Assembly (NCBI GenBank): GCA_017542125.1
Contig: JAFXXU010000033.1
Coordinates: 6,360 to 70,359 of the forward strand
Source of the DNA: Ruminococcus sp.
Lineage (GTDB): Bacteria; Bacillota; Clostridia; Oscillospirales; Ruminococcaceae
DNA length: 64,000 bases
Direction: 5' to 3'
The notes under the pieces are model-generated. The model had not been told where the DNA came from. It saw only the letters and a program-made list of their open reading frames with translations, and did not search any database. The position numbers and the translations under genes were made by a program. Below are positions 5,433 through 57,297 of the stretch, piece after piece (the first letter of the stretch is position 1; each line of letters opens with the position of its first letter).

Positions 5433-5478
5433 TATTCGCCCGAGCCTTCTCAGAAGGCAAGGCTGATCATAAATCTTT

Positions 5479-5497
5479 ATGCATTGTGCATTGAATA
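5479..5497 (+). repeat. two units of the GCATTGT heptamer repeat directly upstream of the proA Shine-Dalgarno
   Basis: ATGCATTGTGCATTGAAT. The same motif occurs at 44555-44594 and, reverse-complemented, at 51397-51432. Confidence 0.7.
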
Positions 5498-44500: not shown

Positions 44501-44554
44501 ACAATATGTGCGGTCTTCCGTAAAGCTATTGCAGATACATCGCCGCAGGCGATA

Positions 44555-44594
44555 CATTCATTGTGCATTGTGCATTGTGAATTGTGCATTGAAT
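44555..44594 (+). repeat. about 5 tandem units of heptamer GCATTGT in the 5' leader of the CobD/CbiB-like gene
   Basis: CATTCATTGTGCATTGTGCATTGTGAATTGTGCATTGAATG, ending 4 nt before the AAAGGA Shine-Dalgarno. Confidence 0.85.
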
Positions 44595-46446: not shown

Positions 46447-46503
46447 ACATCTGGCTTACGAGTTAATCTTTTTCAATTCATTTTACTTTCCTTACTTTTT
46501 GAG

Positions 46504-46531
46504 AAAGCCGTCCCCCCGGGGACGGCTTTTT
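46504..46531. terminator. bidirectional intrinsic terminator between convergent genes
   Basis: AAAGCCGTCCC-CCCG-GGGACGGCTTT flanked by A/T runs. Confidence 0.75.
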
Positions 46532-46534
46532 CAT

Positions 46535-46996: not shown

Positions 46997-47361
46997 TATC
47001 CTCCCTCTTTCTGTCAGGTTTTGCCGTTTTCTGCCCCCGTAAATCGTCAGAGGGCTCGGTCTGCTAATATATATGAGGACTTGCCGCCCGTGAGAACAAA
47101 AAGCAGTAAAAATATCCCGCTTCGGCTGGGCGTTGCCGCAAATGTTGTTTTACCCTGCCCTCTGCCTGATCTACTGAGGGAAACCTTTCTGAAGAAAGGT
47201 CTCCCCCAACAGACCACACTAAGGCAGGATAGATCATCGTTAGCGGCAATGCACAGCCGGAGCGGGAAATTTTTCTGATTTTTTTGCGTTTATCCCTTTT
47301 CAAAGCGGGTGAAATGTGGTATAATGAAAATAATAATACCCTTTTGAGAGGAGAAGTCATT

Positions 47362-47823
47362 ATGAAACAGGAAGTAACCGTAAAGATATTCAACCGGGAG
47401 TACAAGCTGCTCACAGATGAGAGCCGGGAGTACACCAACGAGCTGGCTGCGGCCCTCAATCACAGGCTGGAGGATCTGCTCAAGGGCAAGAGCACCCTTT
47501 CCGCGCAGGACGGGGCTGCGCTTATCGCACTTGAGGCCTGCGACGATCTCTACAAGACCCGCTCGAACCTGGAAAACATCCGCTCGCAGATAAAGGTGTA
47601 TTTCGACGACGCCTCCAAGGCCAAGGCCAGAGCCGAGGCTGCCGAGAAGGAGAACCAGCAGCTCCGGGAGAAGGTTGAGCAGCTCCAGAAGGAGCTCCGC
47701 CTCCGCAACAGCTTCACTCCCGAGGAGACGGTCTCTGCCAAAGATATGATCGCCAAGGATATCTCAGATGCTCTGGGTGGGAACAACGTGACCGGCTACG
47801 GCTACGGGAAGAAGAATGGCTGA
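47362..47823 (+). CDS. zapA: cell division protein ZapA
   Basis: V.I..REY.L....SREY...LA..L..RL N-terminal domain plus a coiled-coil tail. GAGGAGAAG Shine-Dalgarno. Confidence 0.7.
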   Translation: MKQEVTVKIFNREYKLLTDESREYTNELAAALNHRLEDLLKGKSTLSAQDGAALIALEACDDLYKTRSNLENIRSQIKVYFDDASKAKARAEAAEKENQQLREKVEQLQKELRLRNSFTPEETVSAKDMIAKDISDALGGNNVTGYGYGKKNG

Positions 47824-49864
47824 GATACTTGCTCCCTGCGGCTCTCCCGAGGCGCTGGAGGCTGCCCTCAGAACGGGCTGCGATGCCGTCTACTTAGGGG
47901 GCGAGAGCTTCTCTGCGAGGCAGAGCGCCGCCAATTTCTCCGAAACGGAGCTTGAAGAGGCGGTCAGGCGCTGCCATATCCGCGGGGTTAAGGTCTATCA
48001 GGCGATAAATACCGTCATCACCGACAAGGAGCTGCCTGAGTGCATAAAAGCCGTCAGAACAGCCTGCCGCCTTGGTGTGGACGGGCTCATAACCCAGGAC
48101 CTGGCTCTCGCTGTCATAGTCAGGGAGATGTGCCCCGATATGGAGCTCCACGCCTCCACGCAGATGACCCTGCACACAAGGCAGGGAATGCTCTTTGCCG
48201 GGGAGCTGGGCTTTTCCAGGGGCGTTGCGTCCAGAGAGCTGCCGGAGAGGATACTCCGGGAGCTTTGTAAGCTGCCCATCGAGATAGAGGTGTTCGTTCA
48301 CGGAGCGCTTTGTATGTCGGTGTCGGGGCAGTGCTATATGTCGGCGGTGATAGGTCAGCGGAGCGCCAACAGGGGCCGCTGCGCACAGGCTTGCCGTCTG
48401 CCCGCAGCCGGCGTAAAGGGCTCGGAGCGGCACGGGCTGTCCCTTAAGGATATGTCATACATCCCCCACCTGAAAAAGCTGGAGGCTATGGGCGCTGCCT
48501 CTCTGAAAATAGAGGGACGGATGAAGCGCCCGGAGTACGTCGCAGCTGCAGTAACGGCTGTCAGGACGGAGCTTTCCGGCGGGAAAAGCGATAAAGCCCT
48601 GCTGGAGGGCGTGTTCTCACGCTCCGGCTTCACTGACGGCTATTTCACCGGTAAAACCGGTGCGGATATGTTCGGCTTCCGCCGAAAAGAGGACGTTGAG
48701 GCCTCTGCTGCGGCGCTGCCCGCCCTCCACGAGCTTTACCGCCGCGAGTACAAGCGCTCGGAGGTAAAGGCATTTGTCAGGATGAAAAGCGGTGAGCCGC
48801 TGTATATAGCCTTTGAGGACAGCTGCGGCCTCCGGGCCGAGCATTACGGCAGCGAGCCCCGGAAGGCTCTGAACCGCCCCGCCGATAAGGATCATCTTGA
48901 AAAACAGCTCTCCAAGCTGGGGGATACGATCTATACCCTGGCCTCTGTGGAGTTTGAGCTCGGTGAGGGGCTGACCGTCCCCGCGGCGGAGCTGAACGCT
49001 GCCAGGCGGGAGCTCTGCGGGAAGCTGGATGAGCTGCGGTTTGAACGGTTCACCAAGCGCCCGAGCTTTGAGGAGAAGGAGCTGTCATTCGCTCCCCAGA
49101 AAAGGCAGGGCAGGCAGGCGCTTCGGCTGTACGTCCGTAAAGCGGAGCAGCTGAAAGAAGCCGACCTCGGCGCGGTGGAGCTGATACTTGCAGACCTCGG
49201 TACCTGCAAAACGCTGCTCGATGAGGGCTATGCCCCCGAGAAGCTCTGCGCCGTTATGCCGAGATTTACCTTTGACGAAGAGAAAGATATATCCCGCCTG
49301 CGTGAGCTTGCAGAGCGGGGGTTAAAGCATATTGAATGTACGAACTACGCCCATATCCCCATAGGACGGGAGCTTGGGCTCATCCTCCACGGAGGATACG
49401 GGCTCAACGTCACCAACAGCCTGGCGGCGGGCGAGCTGAAAAGGCTGGGCTTTGCCGACTTCACCGCTTCCTTTGAGCTCAGAGCCGGGGAGATAGCCTC
49501 CCTCGGGGGAGAGTTTCCGTACAGCGTGTTCGGCTACGGGCGCATCCCGATGATGCTCACCGTAAACTGTCCCATAAAAGCGGAGCGGGGCTGCTCCGGC
49601 TGCACGGGAGCCCTGTTTGACAGAACGGGCAGGCGTTTCCCCGTAAGGTGCAGCAGGGAGCAGGGCTATACAGAGCTCCTGAACTCGGATATACTGAGCA
49701 TCGCCGGCAGGGAGAAAGATTTTGCCGGTGCCGACAGCATCAGGCTTGAAATGTATGACGAAAGCCCCGAAAGAGTTAGAGAGACGATCGGGGCGTTCAC
49801 GGGAGGGGAAGCCCTCTTTGCAGAGGGGCTCACAAAGGGGCTCTATTACAGAGGGGTGAAATAG
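47816..49864 (+). CDS. U32 family peptidase (collagenase-like / RlhA-TrhP-type)
   Basis: E.LAPCGS N-terminus and the E(V)FVHGALC.S.SGQC.(M)S signature. Confidence 0.85.
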   Translation: MAEILAPCGSPEALEAALRTGCDAVYLGGESFSARQSAANFSETELEEAVRRCHIRGVKVYQAINTVITDKELPECIKAVRTACRLGVDGLITQDLALAVIVREMCPDMELHASTQMTLHTRQGMLFAGELGFSRGVASRELPERILRELCKLPIEIEVFVHGALCMSVSGQCYMSAVIGQRSANRGRCAQACRLPAAGVKGSERHGLSLKDMSYIPHLKKLEAMGAASLKIEGRMKRPEYVAAAVTAVRTELSGGKSDKALLEGVFSRSGFTDGYFTGKTGADMFGFRRKEDVEASAAALPALHELYRREYKRSEVKAFVRMKSGEPLYIAFEDSCGLRAEHYGSEPRKALNRPADKDHLEKQLSKLGDTIYTLASVEFELGEGLTVPAAELNAARRELCGKLDELRFERFTKRPSFEEKELSFAPQKRQGRQALRLYVRKAEQLKEADLGAVELILADLGTCKTLLDEGYAPEKLCAVMPRFTFDEEKDISRLRELAERGLKHIECTNYAHIPIGRELGLILHGGYGLNVTNSLAAGELKRLGFADFTASFELRAGEIASLGGEFPYSVFGYGRIPMMLTVNCPIKAERGCSGCTGALFDRTGRRFPVRCSREQGYTELLNSDILSIAGREKDFAGADSIRLEMYDESPERVRETIGAFTGGEALFAEGLTKGLYYRGVK

Positions 49865-49884
49865 CAGCAAAGTGCGGTGATAGG

Positions 49885-51435
49885 ATGGATATGCCGAATA
49901 AAAGCGGCGGGCGCAGCCTGCTACGGGAGTTTCTGCGCAGGCGGCAGCATCCCGTAAAGATAATCGGCTATACCTCAAAGACCCTATGGCTGCTGGTGAT
50001 ACCCATTGCCAAGAATATCGTGGCTTCAAACTTCGATATACAGGGCTGGCTGCGTACCTACTGGCTCGAATTCATAACCATACTCGTCATCGTGGGCTGG
50101 GCGGTGTTCCGATGGCTGTTCGTGTTTTACCGCATCTACGGGGACAGGATAACCGTTCACGCCGGGCCCTTCGGGCTTATCCGCACCACGGTCTACTTCG
50201 GTGAGATAACTGCTCTGCGTACCGAGCAGGGCTATCTCTACCGGGCGGTGAAAGCCTGCACCCTCTATATCGAGACCCAGGCGGTCTCGCTGACAAACAA
50301 CGAGATCAAGCTGGTCATCTCAAAGAAAAGCACCGATGAGATCTTCAAGGTGGTCTCGGGCAGGAGCGAGGGGGAGCCCGCCTTCACCGTCGCCCCTCGG
50401 AGACGGCATATGCTGGTCTTTTCGCTGATTTTTTCTTCGACCCTCTCGGGGATAATAGTCTTCGGAGCTGTGACCTTCCAGATGTACCGCATAGTCGGCG
50501 GAGAGCTGGAGCGGCAGGTAGCCAATAAGGTCAACAGCGGGCTTACCGAGATAGACAGCCACCTGCTGGGGCTCTCAAAGACCGTCCCCCAGGCGGTGCT
50601 GTTCGTGGGAGCGGTGATAGCAGGGGGATGGCTCATCTCCTTTGTGTCCAGCCTGCTGGAGAACTGGAGCTTCCGCGCCACCAGACGGGGCGGGCAGCTG
50701 TTGGTCGAGTCGGGAGCGGTAAAGAGCGTAAGAAAGGTCATCGAGCGGCACAGCATCAGCTGCTTCGATCTCCACCAGACACTGCTTATGAAGTTCACAC
50801 GCATTTGCTCCGTCCATATCCTCTGCGCGGGATACTCAAAGAGCAAAAGACAGACCGCCGCCCTTATCCCCATAGCTACCTACGGCGAAATGGCAGCCTC
50901 GATGAGGCTCCTCGCCCCGGAGCTGGGCAAGCACCGTACCGTTATCTACCCTGCCAGGGGCGCTCTGCGGCGCTATACCATAGTACCGTTGATAATGAGT
51001 ACCCTGCCCATAGTCCTCGGCACCATAGCTAAACAGTTTTCCGACAGATGGCACAGCGAGATCAATATTTTCATGCTGGCCGTGACTGTCCCCATAGTGT
51101 GGAAAACGGTGGTCGCGGGGTTCGCTTCAAAGCTCACCTCCTTTGGCATCACCAAGGATACCCTGACGGTATCCTATTGCAAGGGCTATCAGTTCCACAG
51201 GGTAGTGGTGCCTAGAGGGAATATAACCGAGATGACCGTGGTGCAGAACTTCTTCCAAAGGAAGAACGGCACCTGTACCCTGCTGGTCTGCACAGATTCG
51301 GAGACCGTCAAGCAGCACCGTGTCTACGGGCTGCCCTATAAAGAGACCGCAGAATGCCTCGCCGCCGAGTTCACCGGCATGGCAGAGGCGCTGCTTTGCA
51401 ATGCACAATGCACAATTCACAATGCACAATTATGA
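49885..51435 (+). CDS. bacterial PH-domain (bPH_2) membrane protein, YdbT-like
   Basis: 516 aa with repeated (TM pair + ~80 aa soluble) modules. The C-terminal 12 aa are encoded by the heptamer repeat. Confidence 0.55.
   Translation: MDMPNKSGGRSLLREFLRRRQHPVKIIGYTSKTLWLLVIPIAKNIVASNFDIQGWLRTYWLEFITILVIVGWAVFRWLFVFYRIYGDRITVHAGPFGLIRTTVYFGEITALRTEQGYLYRAVKACTLYIETQAVSLTNNEIKLVISKKSTDEIFKVVSGRSEGEPAFTVAPRRRHMLVFSLIFSSTLSGIIVFGAVTFQMYRIVGGELERQVANKVNSGLTEIDSHLLGLSKTVPQAVLFVGAVIAGGWLISFVSSLLENWSFRATRRGGQLLVESGAVKSVRKVIERHSISCFDLHQTLLMKFTRICSVHILCAGYSKSKRQTAALIPIATYGEMAASMRLLAPELGKHRTVIYPARGALRRYTIVPLIMSTLPIVLGTIAKQFSDRWHSEINIFMLAVTVPIVWKTVVAGFASKLTSFGITKDTLTVSYCKGYQFHRVVVPRGNITEMTVVQNFFQRKNGTCTLLVCTDSETVKQHRVYGLPYKETAECLAAEFTGMAEALLCNAQCTIHNAQL
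51397..51432 (-). repeat. about 5 units of the GCATTGT heptamer (reverse orientation) forming the 3' end of the YdbT-like CDS
   Basis: Plus strand reads TGCAATGCACAATGCACAATTCACAATGCACAATTA. Confidence 0.85.
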
Positions 51436-51486
51436 TGCGCCTGCGGCGCAACGGCTGAACGCATAAAGCCCAAAACGCAATACCGC

Positions 51487-52106
51487 ACGCCTCACTATAG
51501 CAATGCGAGCAAGCAATGCTCCGGCGGCACTCAAACCAAAGACGCGGAGCCAATGACCGTTCGCCACTACAACTGTTAGCGACGTCAGGAGCGCGGCGTG
51601 ATGTAAAAAAACGCCTCACCATAGCAATGCGAGCAAGCAATGCTCCGGCGGCACTCAAACCAAAGACGCGGAGCCAAAGACTGTTCGCCACTACAACTGT
51701 TAGCGACGTCAGGAGCGTGGCGTGATGTAAAAAAACGCCTCACCATAGTTATGCGAGCAAGCAATGCTCCGGCGGCACTCAAATCAGAGACGCGGAGCCA
51801 ATGACCGTTCGCCAACACAATTGTTAGCGACGTCAGGAGCGTGGCGTGATGTAAAAAAACGCCTCACTATAGCAATGCGAGCAAGCAATGCTCCGGCGGC
51901 ACTCAAACCAAAGACGCGGAGCCAATGACCGTTCGCCACTACAACTGTTAGCGACGTCAGGAGCGTGGCGTGATGTAAAAAAACGCCTCACTATAGCGAT
52001 GCGAGCAAGCAATGCTCCGGCGGCACTCAAACCAAAGACGCGGAGCCAAAGACTGTTCGCCACTGCGAATGTTAGCGACGTCAGGAGCGTGGCGTGACGT
52101 AAAAAA
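51487..52106 (+). repeat. tandem array: 5 x 124-bp units, head-to-tail, no spacers
   Basis: Units start at 51487, 51611, 51735, 51859 and 51983. Each begins ACGCCTCAC and ends GATGTAAAAAA. Units differ from unit 4 by 1, 3, 8 and 7 substitutions (hand count). Confidence 0.95.
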
Positions 52107-52123
52107 AGAAGGAGGGGATATTT

Positions 52124-54478
52124 GTGAGTAAGTTTGATGCGGGTATGGAATCGATGCTGGATACCTTTGTGTTTGAATCCACAGAGCTGCTGGAAAACCT
52201 CGACGATATACTGATGCGTACCGAGAGCAGCGAGCTTACTGCCGACGATATAGCCGAGATATTCAGAGTAATGCATACGATAAAGGGCTCCGCCGCTATG
52301 ATGGGGCTCAAGAACCTGTCCGAGCTGGCCCACGCGGTGGAGGACATCTATTTCGTCGTGCGTGAAAATCCCGAGCTGCAGTTTGACCGCCCAAAGCTCT
52401 ATGAGCTCTCCTTCAAGACCTCGGACTACCTTAAATACGATATAGAGAACCTGGCTGACGATTCGGTGGAGCTCACCGATTTCTCGGAGTTCATCCCCCA
52501 GCTCCACGAGTTCGCGGCTTACCTGACCGCCCTCTCCAAGGGGGAGGAAGCCGCCGCACCCGCAGCTCACCACGAGATATTCTCAGCCGATGAGCCGGAG
52601 GGCGTAAGAACGGTAAAGATCACCTTCTCCGACAGCTGTATGATGCCCTCCATCAGAGCTATGGTGCTGGTGAATTCCGTGGGCGCGGATGCTGAGGTGC
52701 TCTCCACCATCCCCCCCGACCTGGAGGCGGACAGCGCCGACGACGAGATCAGAGCCCAGGGCTTTATCATCAAGCTCAGCTGCGATGATATCGACCCGGT
52801 CATAGCCCAGCTTAAGGACGGCGTTGACGTCGAGACCGTGGAGGAGCTGAAACGCCCCGCATCCCAGGCACCCAAGGCCGAGCCGGCTAAGCCAGCCCTG
52901 CCCGCAGGCTCTTCGGAGGAGGGTGTCACCACATTCCTCATCAGGTTCGAGGAGGGCTGCCTTATGCCCTCTATCAGAGCTATGGTGCTGAAAAACTCCC
53001 TCAACTCCTACGGCCAGATAGTAAAGACCGTCCCCGACGACCTGGAAAAGGACAGCGCCGAGGACGAGATCGCCAAGAACGGCTTCCGTGTCGAGATAAA
53101 GACCGAGCACGCCGAGGAAGCCCTGGCTATGCTCAAGGAGGGCGTGAACGTCCTCACAGCGGATAAGCTGGAGGCTGCAAAGCCTGAGGCCGAGGCAGAG
53201 GCCAAGCCAGCAGCTGAGGCTCCCAAGGCTGCCCAGAAGAAGGACGCTCCCGCAGCAGGCGGCGCCCACGGCAGCGGCAGCATGATCTCGGTAAGGCTGG
53301 AAAAGCTGGACAGGCTCCTTGACCTGGTGGCCGAGATAGTTATAACCGAGTCGGGCGTTACTTCAAGCCCCGACCTCAGAGAGATCAGCTCCGGCCTCGA
53401 CCGGTTCCAGAAATCGGCCCGTGAGCTGAAAAAGCTCACCGATGAGCTCCAGGACGTTGTTATGTCCATACGAATGGTGCCGGTGCAGACCGCATTCTCC
53501 AAGATGAGCCGGGTGGTCAGGGATATGAACCAGACCCTGGGCAAAAACGTGGACCTTGTATTCGTGGGAGCCGATACCGAAGCGGATAAATCCGTGGTGG
53601 ATATCCTGGGCGACCCTCTGATGCATATTGTGAGAAACGCTGTTGACCACGGCATTGAGATGCCGGAGGAGCGTGCCGCCGCAGGCAAGACCGAAAGGGC
53701 CACCGTTACCCTCTCGGCAGGCTATGAGAGCGGAGAAGTCGTGATCTCCTGCGAGGATAACGGCGCGGGTATGGACCCAAAGAAGCTGCTGGCAAAGGCA
53801 AAGAAGAACGGCATCCTCACCAAGCCGGAGAATGAGTACACCGACTCGGAATGCTACGAGCTGATAATGTCGGCAGGCTTCTCCACCAACGAGACCGTGA
53901 CCCAGTATTCCGGCCGCGGCGTAGGTATGGATGTTGTAAGGAAGAATATCGAAAAGGTCGGAGGGAAAATGTACATCGACTCCGAGTTGGGCAAGGGCTC
54001 GAAGTTCACTATCAGGATACCCCTCTCACTTTCGATCATTGACGTTCTGGGCGTTGAAGCCAACGGCGCTGAGCTCTCGGTGCCTATATCCTCCGTCAAA
54101 GAGATCTTCCGGGCAGAGCCCTCACAGCTCATAAAGGATCCCGACGGGACGGAGCTGGTGATGCTCAGAGAGAAGTGCCTGCGTGTCATAAGGCTCGCCG
54201 ATGCCTTTGAGCTCACGGGCGAGCGGATGCCTCTGGAGGAGGGCATACTCCTCTATTGCAGTGAGGACGGGCGCGAGGCTGCGATCTTTGCCGATGCCCT
54301 GACTGCGGATCAGCAGGTGGTCGTAAAGCCCCTGTCGATACTGCTCAACAAGTATGATCTGAAAAGCAAGGGGCTTTCGGGCTGCTCTATCCTGGCAGAC
54401 GGAAGCATAACCCTTATAACCGATATCAACGAGCTGTTCATCCATAACGGGGTGCGTCAGCTCGAAGCCGCAAAGTAA
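52124..54478 (+). CDS. cheA: chemotaxis histidine kinase CheA (with two tandem P2-like domains)
   Basis: Hpt motif HTIKGSAAMMG, HATPase N/G boxes (NAVDHGIE, DNGAGM, GRGVGMD) and a C-terminal CheW-like domain. GTG start 6 nt after GAAGGAGGGG. Confidence 0.9.
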   Translation: MSKFDAGMESMLDTFVFESTELLENLDDILMRTESSELTADDIAEIFRVMHTIKGSAAMMGLKNLSELAHAVEDIYFVVRENPELQFDRPKLYELSFKTSDYLKYDIENLADDSVELTDFSEFIPQLHEFAAYLTALSKGEEAAAPAAHHEIFSADEPEGVRTVKITFSDSCMMPSIRAMVLVNSVGADAEVLSTIPPDLEADSADDEIRAQGFIIKLSCDDIDPVIAQLKDGVDVETVEELKRPASQAPKAEPAKPALPAGSSEEGVTTFLIRFEEGCLMPSIRAMVLKNSLNSYGQIVKTVPDDLEKDSAEDEIAKNGFRVEIKTEHAEEALAMLKEGVNVLTADKLEAAKPEAEAEAKPAAEAPKAAQKKDAPAAGGAHGSGSMISVRLEKLDRLLDLVAEIVITESGVTSSPDLREISSGLDRFQKSARELKKLTDELQDVVMSIRMVPVQTAFSKMSRVVRDMNQTLGKNVDLVFVGADTEADKSVVDILGDPLMHIVRNAVDHGIEMPEERAAAGKTERATVTLSAGYESGEVVISCEDNGAGMDPKKLLAKAKKNGILTKPENEYTDSECYELIMSAGFSTNETVTQYSGRGVGMDVVRKNIEKVGGKMYIDSELGKGSKFTIRIPLSLSIIDVLGVEANGAELSVPISSVKEIFRAEPSQLIKDPDGTELVMLREKCLRVIRLADAFELTGERMPLEEGILLYCSEDGREAAIFADALTADQQVVVKPLSILLNKYDLKSKGLSGCSILADGSITLITDINELFIHNGVRQLEAAK

Positions 54479-54494
54479 AGGAGGGGGGGAGCAT

Positions 54495-54923
54495 ATGGCA
54501 GCCATAGGATTTGATATGGGTCAGCTCCTGACCTTCGACTGCGGCGGGCAGGTCTATGCCTTCGACCTCACCGATGTTACAGACATCATCGAGGTGCCGG
54601 AGATCACGGTGCTGCCCATGGTGGCGGATTATATCCTGGGGATAATGAACCTCCGCGGCAAGGTGGTGCCCGTAATGGAATTTGCGGGCAGGATGGGCTT
54701 CCCGCAGCCGGAGTACGATGAGCACAGCTGTATCATCGTGGTGGACTGCGAGGGGGCGCTGCTGGGGATAAAGGTGCCCAGAGTTATCGATGCCGAGGCC
54801 TATGAAAAGGATCAGCTCAGCCCCTCGCCTGTGGATAATTCCTGCGTGAGAGGGTATATCGAGCTGAAAGAAAGAAGAGTAACGGTCATCGACTGCGTAA
54901 GGCTGTCCGAGAAGAACAGATAA
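54495..54923 (+). CDS. cheW: chemotaxis coupling protein CheW
   Basis: 142 aa. GIMNLRGKVVPV motif. Confidence 0.85.
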   Translation: MAAIGFDMGQLLTFDCGGQVYAFDLTDVTDIIEVPEITVLPMVADYILGIMNLRGKVVPVMEFAGRMGFPQPEYDEHSCIIVVDCEGALLGIKVPRVIDAEAYEKDQLSPSPVDNSCVRGYIELKERRVTVIDCVRLSEKNR

Positions 54924-54939
54924 GAGGTGATCTGCATTG

Positions 54940-55770
54940 ATGGAACTCAGCAATGAGGATTTTATAAGGCTCGCCAAGACCATAAAAGCCAAATACGGCC
55001 TCAACCTCACCGAGAAGAAATACCTCATCGAGTCGAGGCTGACCAACTATGTCCTTGACTGCGGCTTCGATAATTTCACCGAGTATCTCGACAGCGTATA
55101 TGCCGACCGCAGCGGCATCGAGATGACCAATATAATCAGCAGGCTCACCACCAACTATACATACTTTATGCGTGAGAGCGAGCATTTCCGTCACTTCACC
55201 GAGGTGTTCCTGAAGGAAGCCGAGGAGCGCATAGAGGATAAGGATCTGCGCATCTGGAGCGCGGGCTGCTCCTACGGCAACGAGCCCTATAACTTCGCTA
55301 TGTGCCTCTATGAGTATTTCGGTGATAAGGCTATGTCCTGGGATTCAAGGATACTTGCTACCGATATTTCCTTCAATGCTTTGCGGATGGCAAAGCACGG
55401 CGTTTTCACCGAGCAGGCTTTGCAGGAGCTCCCGGATGAATGGCAAAGGAAGTATTTTACGAGGCACGTCAACGGCACCTACCAGGTGACGGACGACCTT
55501 CGCAGCAATGTGGTGTTCAAGTACCATAACCTTATGGACCCCATCTGCTTCAAGAAGAAATTCGACCTGATCGTCTGCCGCAACGTTATGATCTACTTTG
55601 ACGAGCAGACCAAGGAGGAGCTGGTAAACAAGTTCTACGACGCCACGGAGCCGGGGGGCTACCTCTACATCGGCCACGCCGAGAGCGCCCCGAAGAATAT
55701 GCGCTACGAGATAGTCCAGCCTGCAATACTCAGAAAGCCTTTGGAGAAGGGAGATGAGGACGATGAATGA
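54940..55770 (+). CDS. cheR: chemotaxis protein methyltransferase CheR
   Basis: TNYTYFMRE, IWSAGCSYGNEPY and CRNVMIYFD motifs. Confidence 0.9.
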   Translation: MELSNEDFIRLAKTIKAKYGLNLTEKKYLIESRLTNYVLDCGFDNFTEYLDSVYADRSGIEMTNIISRLTTNYTYFMRESEHFRHFTEVFLKEAEERIEDKDLRIWSAGCSYGNEPYNFAMCLYEYFGDKAMSWDSRILATDISFNALRMAKHGVFTEQALQELPDEWQRKYFTRHVNGTYQVTDDLRSNVVFKYHNLMDPICFKKKFDLIVCRNVMIYFDEQTKEELVNKFYDATEPGGYLYIGHAESAPKNMRYEIVQPAILRKPLEKGDEDDE

Positions 55771-56788
55771 GATCCGGATTCTTATAGCCGATGATTCGGT
55801 GCTGTTTTCAAAGTTTTTGAAAAGCGTTGTGGATTCGGCGGAGGGCTTCACCTGCATCTCCTGCGCGGGCAATGCCTTTGATGCCAGGGACGAGATCGAA
55901 AAGCTCCGCCCCGATATGCTCATCCTCGATATCGAGATGCCCAAGATGAACGGTATAGCCTTTCTGAGGCAGCTCATCCCGCAGTACACGGTGCCTGTCA
56001 TAGTCTGCTCCTCCAGAAAGGATCTGATACTCCAGGCAATGCAGGCGGGGGCCGCAGATTTCCTCCCCAAGCCCGAGGAGGGCGGCTACGACGAGTTCAA
56101 GCAGAAGCTGCTCAAATCTTTGAGAGCCGCAGCCAACATCAGGCGGGTAAAGAGCGGCTGCAAGTTCTATAACATCAGGAATTCCGCAATAAAACAGCTC
56201 CCCGATCAAGGGAATACGCGCAAGCTCATAGCCATAGGCGGCTCGGCGGGCAGCACAGAGGCTCTGCCTGCCATACTCTCGGCGCTGGACAAAAGCTCGC
56301 CCCCTGTGGCGGTGGTGCTGCATATGCCCGAGGGCTATACCTCCCTCTACGCCAAGCGTATGGATAAGGCCTTCCCACAGCTGAATATCGTTGAGGCGAC
56401 CCATGGGCTCTATCTGGAGAACGGTATGGTGGTCATCGCCCAGGGCGATAAGCATATGAGGCTCTTCAAGGACGCCAAGGGCTATTTCGTCACCTGCGAG
56501 TTCGGACCCAAGGTTTCGGGTCACTGCCCCAGCGTTGACGTGTTCTTTGAGTCAGTAGCCTTTTGCGCCGGGGATGAGGCCATAGGCGTCATCCTGACGG
56601 GAATGGGCAAGGACGGTGCCCGGGGTATGTCTCAGATGCGCCACGCAGGAGCCTACACCATAGGTCAGAACGAAAAGACCTCGGCGGTGTACGGTATGCC
56701 CAAGGCAGCCTTTGAGCTGGGTGCGGTCATCAAGCAGTGCGATCTGGAGCGCATAGGCGCAGTGATCAATTCGCACCTGAAAAAGTGA
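55763..56788 (+). CDS. cheB: protein-glutamate methylesterase/glutaminase CheB (REC + esterase)
   Basis: REC domain (ILIADDS ... DMLILDIEMPKMNG). Esterase motifs IGGSAGSTEAL, GKDGA and the H/D triad region. ATG 55763 lies 10 nt after GGAGAAGGGAGA. Confidence 0.9.
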   Translation: MNEIRILIADDSVLFSKFLKSVVDSAEGFTCISCAGNAFDARDEIEKLRPDMLILDIEMPKMNGIAFLRQLIPQYTVPVIVCSSRKDLILQAMQAGAADFLPKPEEGGYDEFKQKLLKSLRAAANIRRVKSGCKFYNIRNSAIKQLPDQGNTRKLIAIGGSAGSTEALPAILSALDKSSPPVAVVLHMPEGYTSLYAKRMDKAFPQLNIVEATHGLYLENGMVVIAQGDKHMRLFKDAKGYFVTCEFGPKVSGHCPSVDVFFESVAFCAGDEAIGVILTGMGKDGARGMSQMRHAGAYTIGQNEKTSAVYGMPKAAFELGAVIKQCDLERIGAVINSHLKK

Positions 56789-56802
56789 GAGGTGAGCGCT
56801 GA

Positions 56803-57297
56803 ATGGAGATAGTTAAATACCTGACCTTTATATCTGCCGGCAGGAAGTTCGCCATACCCTTTTACGATATCAGAACGGTGCTCATCGCCGACAGATTACA
56901 GGAGATACCTGAGTTCCCCGATTATTTCGCCGGGAGCTGCCTCTGGAACGGCACCACCGTCCCCGTCATAGATTCGAGAGCCAGGTTCGGCTTCGAGCGT
57001 GCGCCTCTCACCGACCGCAGCTGCATAATAGTCTGCGAGACCAAGTTCACCGTAAGGCAGAAGCTGGGGCTCATAGGCATCCTCACCGATACGGTGGCGG
57101 AGATGACCGAGATCGACCCCGAAAAGCTCCAGCCCGTGGAGGCGGTCAACAGCGAGGCCAACACCCGCTACCTTACGGGCGTATTTGCCGACGGCAAGGA
57201 TATCTGCTATATCGTGGATACGGGAATGATGGTCAACGATACCGATGCCGACCCGGTAAGAGCTCTGGGCGGAGAGAACGCCCCTCCGGAAGAATGA
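56803..57297 (+). CDS. CheW-like domain protein (second copy)
   Basis: 164 aa. YLTF..GR.FAIP and G......G..VPVID pattern. Confidence 0.7.
   Translation: MEIVKYLTFISAGRKFAIPFYDIRTVLIADRLQEIPEFPDYFAGSCLWNGTTVPVIDSRARFGFERAPLTDRSCIIVCETKFTVRQKLGLIGILTDTVAEMTEIDPEKLQPVEAVNSEANTRYLTGVFADGKDICYIVDTGMMVNDTDADPVRALGGENAPPEE

Follow-up and report, generated by a model that had tools for sequence, protein, structure and literature searches.

A non-coding array of five 124-bp tandem units between a PH-domain gene and cheA in a Ruminococcus sp. contig

The bPH–cheA junction and its tandem array

The window, which is the whole 64,000-nt stretch of Ruminococcus sp. DNA that was analysed, carries a set of chemotaxis genes in which cheA (52124..54478, + strand) is followed by cheW, cheR, cheB and a second cheW. 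Upstream of cheA lies a gene for a bacterial PH-domain protein (bPH_2, YdbT-like; 49885..51435, + strand), which we refer to as bPH. A YdbT-like gene and cheA had already been named as the two flanks in a sequence-only reading of this DNA, and Pfam agrees: the upstream protein matches PF03703 with an E-value of 4e-21, CheA carries the Hpt, P2, H-kinase_dim, HATPase_c and CheW domains, and the genes that follow match CheW, CheR and CheB. An exact-sequence look-up of the bPH protein of the window returned no record. The bPH stop (51435) and the GTG of cheA (52124) are separated by a gap of 688 bp, most of which is taken up by a tandem array.

The array (51487..52106, no strand assigned) consists of five 124-bp units, which start at positions 51487, 51611, 51735, 51859 and 51983 and run head-to-tail with zero spacers. 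It was delimited with TRF, an alignment of the units and an nhmmer profile of the unit. The TRF call covers 51487-52107 with a period of 124, 5.0 copies, 94% matches, 0% indels and a score of 1109, and a gap-free alignment of the five units has a mean column identity of 97%, which bears out the five tandem units first described from the sequence. The substitutions that separate the other units from unit 4, previously counted by hand as 1, 3, 8 and 7, came out identical when we recounted them. We also confirmed in the sequence that the final A-run of the array abuts the Shine-Dalgarno sequence of cheA. This element, GAAGGAGGGG at 52108-52117, is near-perfect and is followed by a 6-nt spacer and the GTG start codon at 52124-52126, so that the whole start region occupies 52108..52126 on the + strand. 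The CheA N-terminus, MSKFDAGMES, agrees with its orthologues. The GC content of the array is 54% and that of the window 55%, and this similarity fits an endogenous origin.

Over the eight units that could be observed, namely those of the window together with those of the same-species strain L003 described below, 15 columns are variable, and columns 10, 15 and 16 are the most variable of the unit. Long stretches elsewhere, such as positions 17-49 and 88-107, do not vary among the eight units. Three small stems can be drawn in the unit and the 15 variable columns all lie outside them, a count that has to be read in the light of stems picked after the variation had been seen and of few independent substitution events. 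The invariant blocks and the variation that spares the stems could mean constraint rather than youth or homogenisation, the independent events being too few for significance. Each unit also holds a direct repeat, AGCAATGC, with a spacing of 13 nt, and the ends of the unit form an imperfect inverted repeat of 7-9 nt (ACGCCTCAC ... GTGGCGT). Clusters of CAATGC/GCATTG occur in the window only in the array and in two heptamer elements.

A 372-bp higher-order duplication had been proposed from variants shared between units. In its favour, divergence by our own count is lowest at a lag of 372 (2.8%, compared with 5.6% at 124 and 6.7% at 248), yet unit 2 is nearer to unit 4, from which it has three differences, than to unit 5, from which it has six. 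We therefore treat the duplication as tentative.

The array forms part of a lineage-specific segment of ~0.7 kb (51397..52107, no strand assigned), which is absent from the orthologous loci of relatives and which comprises a heptamer-encoded tail of bPH, a small hairpin, a 36-nt spacer and the array itself. Its left boundary, at about 51397, is placed where the alignment of the bPH C-terminus ends. The heptamer microsatellite, (CATTGTG)n, lies on the - strand at 51399..51430, where it was detected both by TRF and as part of inverted repeat I1. Read on the + strand, the tract encodes the last 12 codons of bPH, and those codons are lineage-specific. Its sequence recurs in inverted orientation at 44559-44591 (inverted repeat I1, 32 nt, 94% complementary), and when the alignment of the two heptamer copies is extended it takes in the adjacent hairpin. 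The partner of the inverted copy beside the array is a sense-orientation hairpin-plus-heptamer copy in the leader of a CobD/CbiB gene (44537..44593, + strand). This hairpin-plus-heptamer element is dispersed, with three copies in 64 kb.

The small hairpin, TGCGCC-TGC-GGCGCA (51436..51450, + strand), is located directly 3' of the bPH stop; it has no T-run and was not called as a terminator. A similar hairpin, GCGCC-GA-GGCGC, follows the bPH stop of the related locus L006.

Same-species strains and relatives without the array

Three further scaffolds belong to the same species. Two of them, L001 and L002, are ruminant-gut metagenome scaffolds whose flanks are 100% identical to the window, and the third, L003, comes from another study and has flanks 99.0% identical. 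All three have the array but are interrupted within it by a run of N, from which it follows that short-read assembly could not close the array. The copy number of five is accordingly that of one assembly, the three other scaffolds being N-gapped within the array. The inability of these assemblies to close the region is also the point in favour of an assembly artefact, in which a shorter repeat would have been inflated or would have undergone chimeric collapse or expansion. Against this, the independent scaffolds bear gap-flanking units that match the variants of window units 1-2 on the left and 4-5 on the right, the second strain shows three or more distinct units, and the five units of the window are distinguishable by their variants. 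We regard an artefact as highly improbable.

The distinct units of L003 are mosaics of window variants. Its unit 1, for instance, is a mix of states found in window units 1, 2, 3 and 5. One unit junction in L003 reads A6 where the window has A7, and the A-run that ends the array at the Shine-Dalgarno sequence is A13 and not A7. Mosaic units and a changed A-run are the behaviour of a recombining minisatellite, and the idea of a variable minisatellite, one of those put forward in the sequence-only reading, holds good as far as the reshuffling of unit variants between two strains and the change in A-run length are concerned. Between strains, cheA differs by 18 synonymous and 5 non-synonymous codons. 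The che genes are thus still under purifying selection with the array in place, and such selection on cheA would require read-through across the array.

By its CheA homologues the organism falls within a group of rumen Ruminococcus-like bacteria, in which Ruminococcus sp. MAGs and Ruminococcaceae bacterium FB2012 are the best relatives that bear a name. The window and the next relatives have in common the gene string zapA, U32 peptidase, bPH, cheA, cheW, cheR, cheB and cheW. In these relatives the bPH–cheA junction is short: it measures 16 nt in L004 (CheA 88% identical), 33 nt in L006/L007 (84%) and 15 nt in L013 (80%), and in L012, the isolate Ruminococcaceae bacterium FB2012 (79%), bPH and cheA overlap by 14 nt. 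The nhmmer unit profile found no match in the orthologous loci of these relatives (L004, L006/L007, L012 and L013). Since the junction is tight or overlapping in the relatives, the array belongs to an insertion of ~0.7 kb specific to this lineage, and its absence from close relatives speaks against a regulatory device of long standing that is maintained by selection. The ancestral junction was tight and probably translationally coupled.

A different picture is seen in L014/L019 (CheA 78% identical), where an unrelated element of ~95 nt is present once in the junction and once more immediately upstream of bPH. Taken together, these loci indicate that the bPH–cheA junction has been invaded at least twice independently. 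The words shared by the unit and the L014 element are just 8-13 nt long and are not significant, and the score of the unit against the leaders that bear the heptamer element is inside the range of shuffles. An origin of the unit from local sequence, whether the junctions of relatives, the heptamer leaders or the L014 element, was rejected for lack of any significant match.

Further copies, coding potential, structure and signals

No other full or partial copy of the unit was found in the 64-kb window with the nhmmer unit profile; the copy search within this genome covers these 64 kb, so a few distant copies are possible. Exact-word scans were carried out against GTDB genomes (two scans), JGI metagenomes (one) and IMG/VR (two), using words of 19-21 nt that are blind to diverged relatives. 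The most conserved 21-mer had no exact match in either GTDB species genomes or IMG/VR. A 20-mer had two matches in JGI metagenomes and a 19-mer from the second block had three in GTDB genomes, in every case extending over ~20-24 nt around the seed and in unrelated taxa, and these are about the number of matches that chance would be expected to give. A blastn search of the unit against plasmids and phages gave no match. The sequence-only reading had named as the finding that would count against it an ordinary dispersed repeat present at many loci, and no such repeat emerged from the 64-kb window, GTDB, JGI, IMG/VR, plasmids or phages.

The same searches bear on the possibility of a MITE- or REP-like origin, in which the unit would be a small mobile element with copies dispersed in the genome and the array a local pile-up of it. 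The short inverted repeat at the unit ends would suit such an element, as would the dispersal of the neighbouring hairpin-plus-heptamer element and the different repeated element held by the same junction of a relative. However, the 64-kb window has no further copy, there were no true matches in the collections searched, and the borders of the array show no target-site duplication. The multiple copies expected of a MITE were likewise not found within 64 kb of the genome or in the public collections. The REP/BIME sequences of enterobacteria are palindromes of ~35 nt present in hundreds of copies. The array is like them in being non-coding, in containing a hairpin and in lying between operon genes, but it differs in its 124-nt unit, in the one locus found and in not being notably structured. 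We consider a mobile element unlikely.

The array had been described as non-coding, and this assessment stands. Its period of 124 is not a multiple of 3, stops are present in every frame of both strands, and among ORFs beginning within a unit the longest (54-69 aa on the + strand and 51-106 aa on the - strand) overlap one another and shift frame from unit to unit. The translations of the array ORFs had no match among 5.8 billion predicted proteins, and an origin of the array from a coding gene or called ORF was rejected on this ground.

Nor does the array correspond to an RNA family in Rfam, in keeping with the earlier failure to recognize one: Rfam 15 gave 0 matches at gathering score over the whole window. 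When matches to the array with E-values up to 10 were allowed, only RT-19 appeared, in one unit, with 19.6 bits, where the gathering score is 78.3, and an E-value of 0.32. It was rejected as a chance-level score in a single unit with no reverse transcriptase nearby. A tRNA/tmRNA scan found none.

The sequence-only reading had described in each unit a 33-nt hairpin with an invariant stem. This segment occurs five times in the array and never in shuffled sequences, the hairpin alone has a folding energy of about -12 kcal/mol, and the sole changes within it, at positions 50 and 53 of unit 3, are both in the loop. The description of the hairpin is thus correct in its occurrence, its invariant stem and its loop-only changes, but the hairpin is not part of the minimum free energy (MFE) fold of the whole unit. 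Single-unit MFE z-scores range from -0.2 to +0.3 (three phases, both strands, dinucleotide shuffles) and whole-array folding gives z-scores of +1.45 on the + strand and +0.33 on the - strand. The suggestion of a structured repeated leader is therefore not borne out, as neither the unit nor the array folds better than its dinucleotide shuffles.

A second structural claim was that every unit has a GGA in a mini-hairpin, formed by a 3-bp ACG/CGT stem around TCAGGAG. It is true of four of the five window units; unit 1 has CGC instead of CGT at positions 106-108, and the stem is broken there and in unit 1 of L003. The mini-hairpin is the basis for reading the array as a repeated structured leader or intercistronic RNA that titrates CsrA through its GGA loops and so ties the che genes to a CsrA–FliW circuit. 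The Shine-Dalgarno sequence of cheA after the last unit would accord with such a role, and the array, having no + strand terminator, would probably be co-transcribed with cheA. The numbers, however, point the other way. GGA occurs 10 times in the array where 13.3 are expected from the frequency in the window, or about once per 62 nt, and the motif A-N-GGA is absent from the array. No csrA was found in the window by tblastn, for which the query was B. subtilis CsrA. CsrB/Rsm-type RNAs have roughly one GGA per 15-20 nt. The array resembles CsrB, RsmY and RsmZ in having a repeated module that contains GGA, but unlike them it is not enriched in GGA, lacks stable stem-loops as well as a promoter and terminator of its own, and has no match in Rfam. 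It is also absent from all the close relatives that have the same che operon. A CsrA-type sponge, which had been offered as a hypothesis, thus finds no support in the enrichment, the motif, the stem broken in unit 1 or the gene content of the window, and we hold this reading to be very unlikely.

The sequence-only reading had seen no convincing promoter or terminator inside a unit, and our consensus scan likewise detected neither a terminator-like site nor an internal promoter in any of them. In the whole region it gave a single sigma-70-like match, TGCACA-16-TATGAT with 9 of 12 positions (51409..51436, + strand), which is inside the heptamer tract. One match found compared with 1.2 expected in shuffles is chance level; if this promoter were active, the array would be the 5' leader of cheA. 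A hand search of the units for sigma-D/sigma-28 sites (TAAA-N15-CCGATAT) and sigma-70 sites gave weak partial matches on variable columns, which were rejected. The lack of a + strand terminator fits read-through transcription from bPH into cheA. On the - strand, a run of T7 is in a hairpin loop and not 3' of a stem. Tandem sRNA gene arrays such as Listeria LhrC1-4 have their own promoter and intrinsic terminator for each copy, and in this the present array is unlike them, as the scan found neither per unit and the T7 run of the - strand is in a loop.

The array might instead act at the DNA level, its units forming a series of promoter elements or binding sites that would drive or modulate the transcription of cheA or of an antisense RNA into bPH. 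The AGCAATGC direct repeat of each unit and the confinement of the CAATGC/GCATTG clusters to the array and two heptamer elements could be taken in this sense. By our own reading, the - strand of units 1 and 4 also has an extended -10-like motif, TGCTATAGT, but it spans columns 10, 15 and 16, the most variable of the unit, and units 2, 3 and 5 have lost it. A precedent is BrickBuilt of Porphyromonas gingivalis, a minisatellite-in-MITE with a 23-nt unit and 19 copies per genome, for which promoter activity has been demonstrated and is reported to be bidirectional (PMC4596501). Like BrickBuilt, the array is species-specific, intergenic and spacer-free, has flanking leader or tail pieces and small inverted repeats and is near a gene start. 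It is unlike BrickBuilt in its 124-bp unit, in being a single-copy locus in 64 kb and in the absence of any promoter found by the scan inside a unit. There is moreover no known candidate regulator, and the relatives do without the array. Action at the DNA level is in our view an unlikely explanation.

A further feature of the units is a two-codon mini-ORF. In the last unit (52083..52102, + strand) an SD-like AGGAG is followed after 6 nt by GTG-ACG-TAA; any function for it is speculative. The same layout is found in every unit of the window, with GTG-ATG-TAA in units 1-4, and L003 has the variants GTG-ACG-TAA and GTG-AAC-TAA. The pattern AGGAG-N6-GTG-NNN-TAA is therefore intact in all eight observed units with ATG, ACG or AAC as the middle codon, and this combination of AGGAG and two-codon ORF, kept by every unit, could be functional. 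The nearest in-unit stops before the cheA GTG are the TAA at 52100-52102, at a distance of 21 nt, and the TGA at 52095-52097, at 26 nt.

Such an arrangement recalls the MIRUs, which are shorter than the present unit (~46-101 bp), are dispersed at ~40 loci per genome and have an ORF that overlaps the downstream start by 4 nt. The array is like a MIRU in having tandem units at an intercistronic junction just before a start codon, with small ORFs inside. It is unlike a MIRU in that one locus and no dispersal was found in the 64-kb window and the public collections, and in that the distance is 21 nt with no -4 coupling. The tolerance of MIRUs, which have small ORFs within their units, is attributed to the preservation of downstream translation, the next gene being kept expressed through the coupled internal ORF (PMC12548453). 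By analogy, ribosomes loading or terminating on the last mini-ORF might keep the ribosome-binding site of cheA open and so replace the coupling to bPH. The constancy of the SD, GTG and TAA in all eight units, with a middle codon that varies, would be in line with this proposal. The constancy is statistically unconvincing, however: with about four substitution events in 24 nt, we estimate the chance that all miss the 11 key positions at P ~0.09. The stop-to-cheA distance of 21 nt is not the -4 overlap typical of MIRUs, and cheA already owns a near-perfect SD. We find this relay quite unlikely. We rate just as low an extension of it in which the units would be a modular relay or standby platform, with ribosomes captured along the 0.6-kb spacer and handed to cheA, and the number of units and the A-run setting the level of CheA. 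If this extension were true, the species would possess a heritable and rapidly mutable dial on its chemotaxis signalling.

The array as a probable young minisatellite

We favour, with moderate confidence, the reading of the array as a young, species-restricted, non-coding minisatellite (VNTR) that is crossed by transcription on its way to cheA. In this species a segment of ~0.7 kb was added to a bPH–cheA junction that was ancestrally 15-33 nt long or overlapping, within the conserved zapA–U32 peptidase–bPH–cheAWRBW string, and it includes an inverted copy of the hairpin-plus-heptamer element that is present elsewhere in the same genome. In our account, a 124-bp piece of the segment would then have been amplified head-to-tail, and unequal recombination, slippage or gene conversion may have kept the units similar. 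The array would have no sequence-specific job; it would have lengthened the untranslated spacer to 688 nt and abolished the ancestral translational coupling between bPH and cheA, if there was any. It would be tolerated because it has no + strand terminator and because cheA keeps its own strong Shine-Dalgarno sequence. Copy number and the adjacent A-run would be expected to vary by strain, and the expression of cheA may shift modestly as a result.

Le Fleche and colleagues in 2001 and Denoeud and Vergnaud in 2004 are said to have catalogued bacterial minisatellite or VNTR loci for MLVA typing. The array, a spacer-free tandem that is non-coding, is best classed with these intergenic minisatellites of bacteria. 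It shares with such VNTRs the head-to-tail non-coding units without spacers, the high similarity of the units, the restriction to one species, the short-read assemblies that break on the array and, as far as the window and L003 show it, the reshuffling of unit variants between strains. The strain differences seen are those of unit content and A-run length, copy number being masked by the N-gaps of L001-L003. It is unlike the usual VNTR in that 124 bp is long for a unit of this class and in that it sits in an otherwise tightly packed operon junction.

If the minisatellite reading is true, the locus would be a clean natural case of a tightly coupled operon junction that tolerates a non-coding insertion of 0.7 kb together with tandem amplification, and the array would be useful as a strain-typing marker for one uncultured rumen Ruminococcus-like species. 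If the number of units tuned cheA expression or motility, this would be a contingency-like chemotaxis locus in a gut anaerobe. Users of short-read metagenome assemblies should be warned that these break at the bPH–cheA array.

Gene string around cheA

At window positions 47284-57297, the genes are ordered zapA, U32 peptidase (with DUF3656), bPH_2 (a YdbT-like PH-domain gene, here bPH), cheA, cheW, cheR, cheB and cheW, and this order is kept in every relative that we examined. Very short junctions within the zapA-to-cheW string suggest that, in this clade, the chemotaxis genes are transcribed as a single unit together with a cell-division gene, a peptidase and a PH-domain gene. Upstream of the string, between convergent genes, there is a near-perfect 16-nt inverted repeat (TGAGAAAGCCGTCCCC / GGGGACGGCTTTTTCA, 46500-46533), which looks like a bidirectional intrinsic terminator.

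Array and A-run at the bPH-cheA junction

The junction between bPH and cheA holds the array of five head-to-tail 124-bp units (51487-52106). An N-gap falls inside this array in all three public metagenome scaffolds of the species, namely L001 (3688-3787) and L002 (3777-3875), whose flanks are 100% identical to the window, and L003 (3780-3878), a second strain with flanks 99.0% identical. Across these three scaffolds, the locus is systematically left unresolved by short-read assembly. The A-run directly 5' of the cheA Shine-Dalgarno sequence differs in length, with A7 in the window (52101-52107) versus A13 in L003 (3964-3976). In this comparison of the window with a single strain with 99% identical flanks, the difference is a second length polymorphism at the junction, at the mononucleotide level.

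Small hairpin elements

The 64-kb window has three copies of a small element, without a match in Rfam, in which a GC hairpin (CGCC-GCA-GGCG) precedes a heptamer microsatellite, (CATTGTG)n. Two copies are in the sense orientation on the + strand, 10-20 nt upstream of the Shine-Dalgarno sequences of two unrelated genes, CobD/CbiB (44537-44593) and an Aldedh/proA-like gene (5475-5495). The third is inverted (51397-51453, - strand) and lies close beside the array at the 3' end of bPH, whose final 12 codons and stop codon it provides. Together with the copy before CobD/CbiB (44.5 kb), this inverted copy (51.4 kb) makes up a 32-nt inverted repeat with 94% complementarity, its arms 6.8 kb apart. Clusters of GCATTG/CAATGC are confined, within the window, to these sites and to the 124-bp units, with two per unit.

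In a related species (L014/L019, CheA 78% identical), bPH and cheA each have a ~95-nt element immediately upstream of the ribosome-binding site. Apart from the word CATTGTGCA, which it has in common with the heptamer element of the window, this ~95-nt element shows no relation to the 124-bp unit. Only two copies are found in 13 kb (L019 8196-8300 and 9901-9983, equivalent to L014 1196-1300 and 2901-2983), and they are 94% identical to each other. Each copy has two hairpins, one of them perfect over 12 bp (ACGCAAAGGCAG-CACA-CTGCCTTTGCGT) and the other reading GCGAAC-TT-GTTCGC, along with the motif GCATTGTGCAC.
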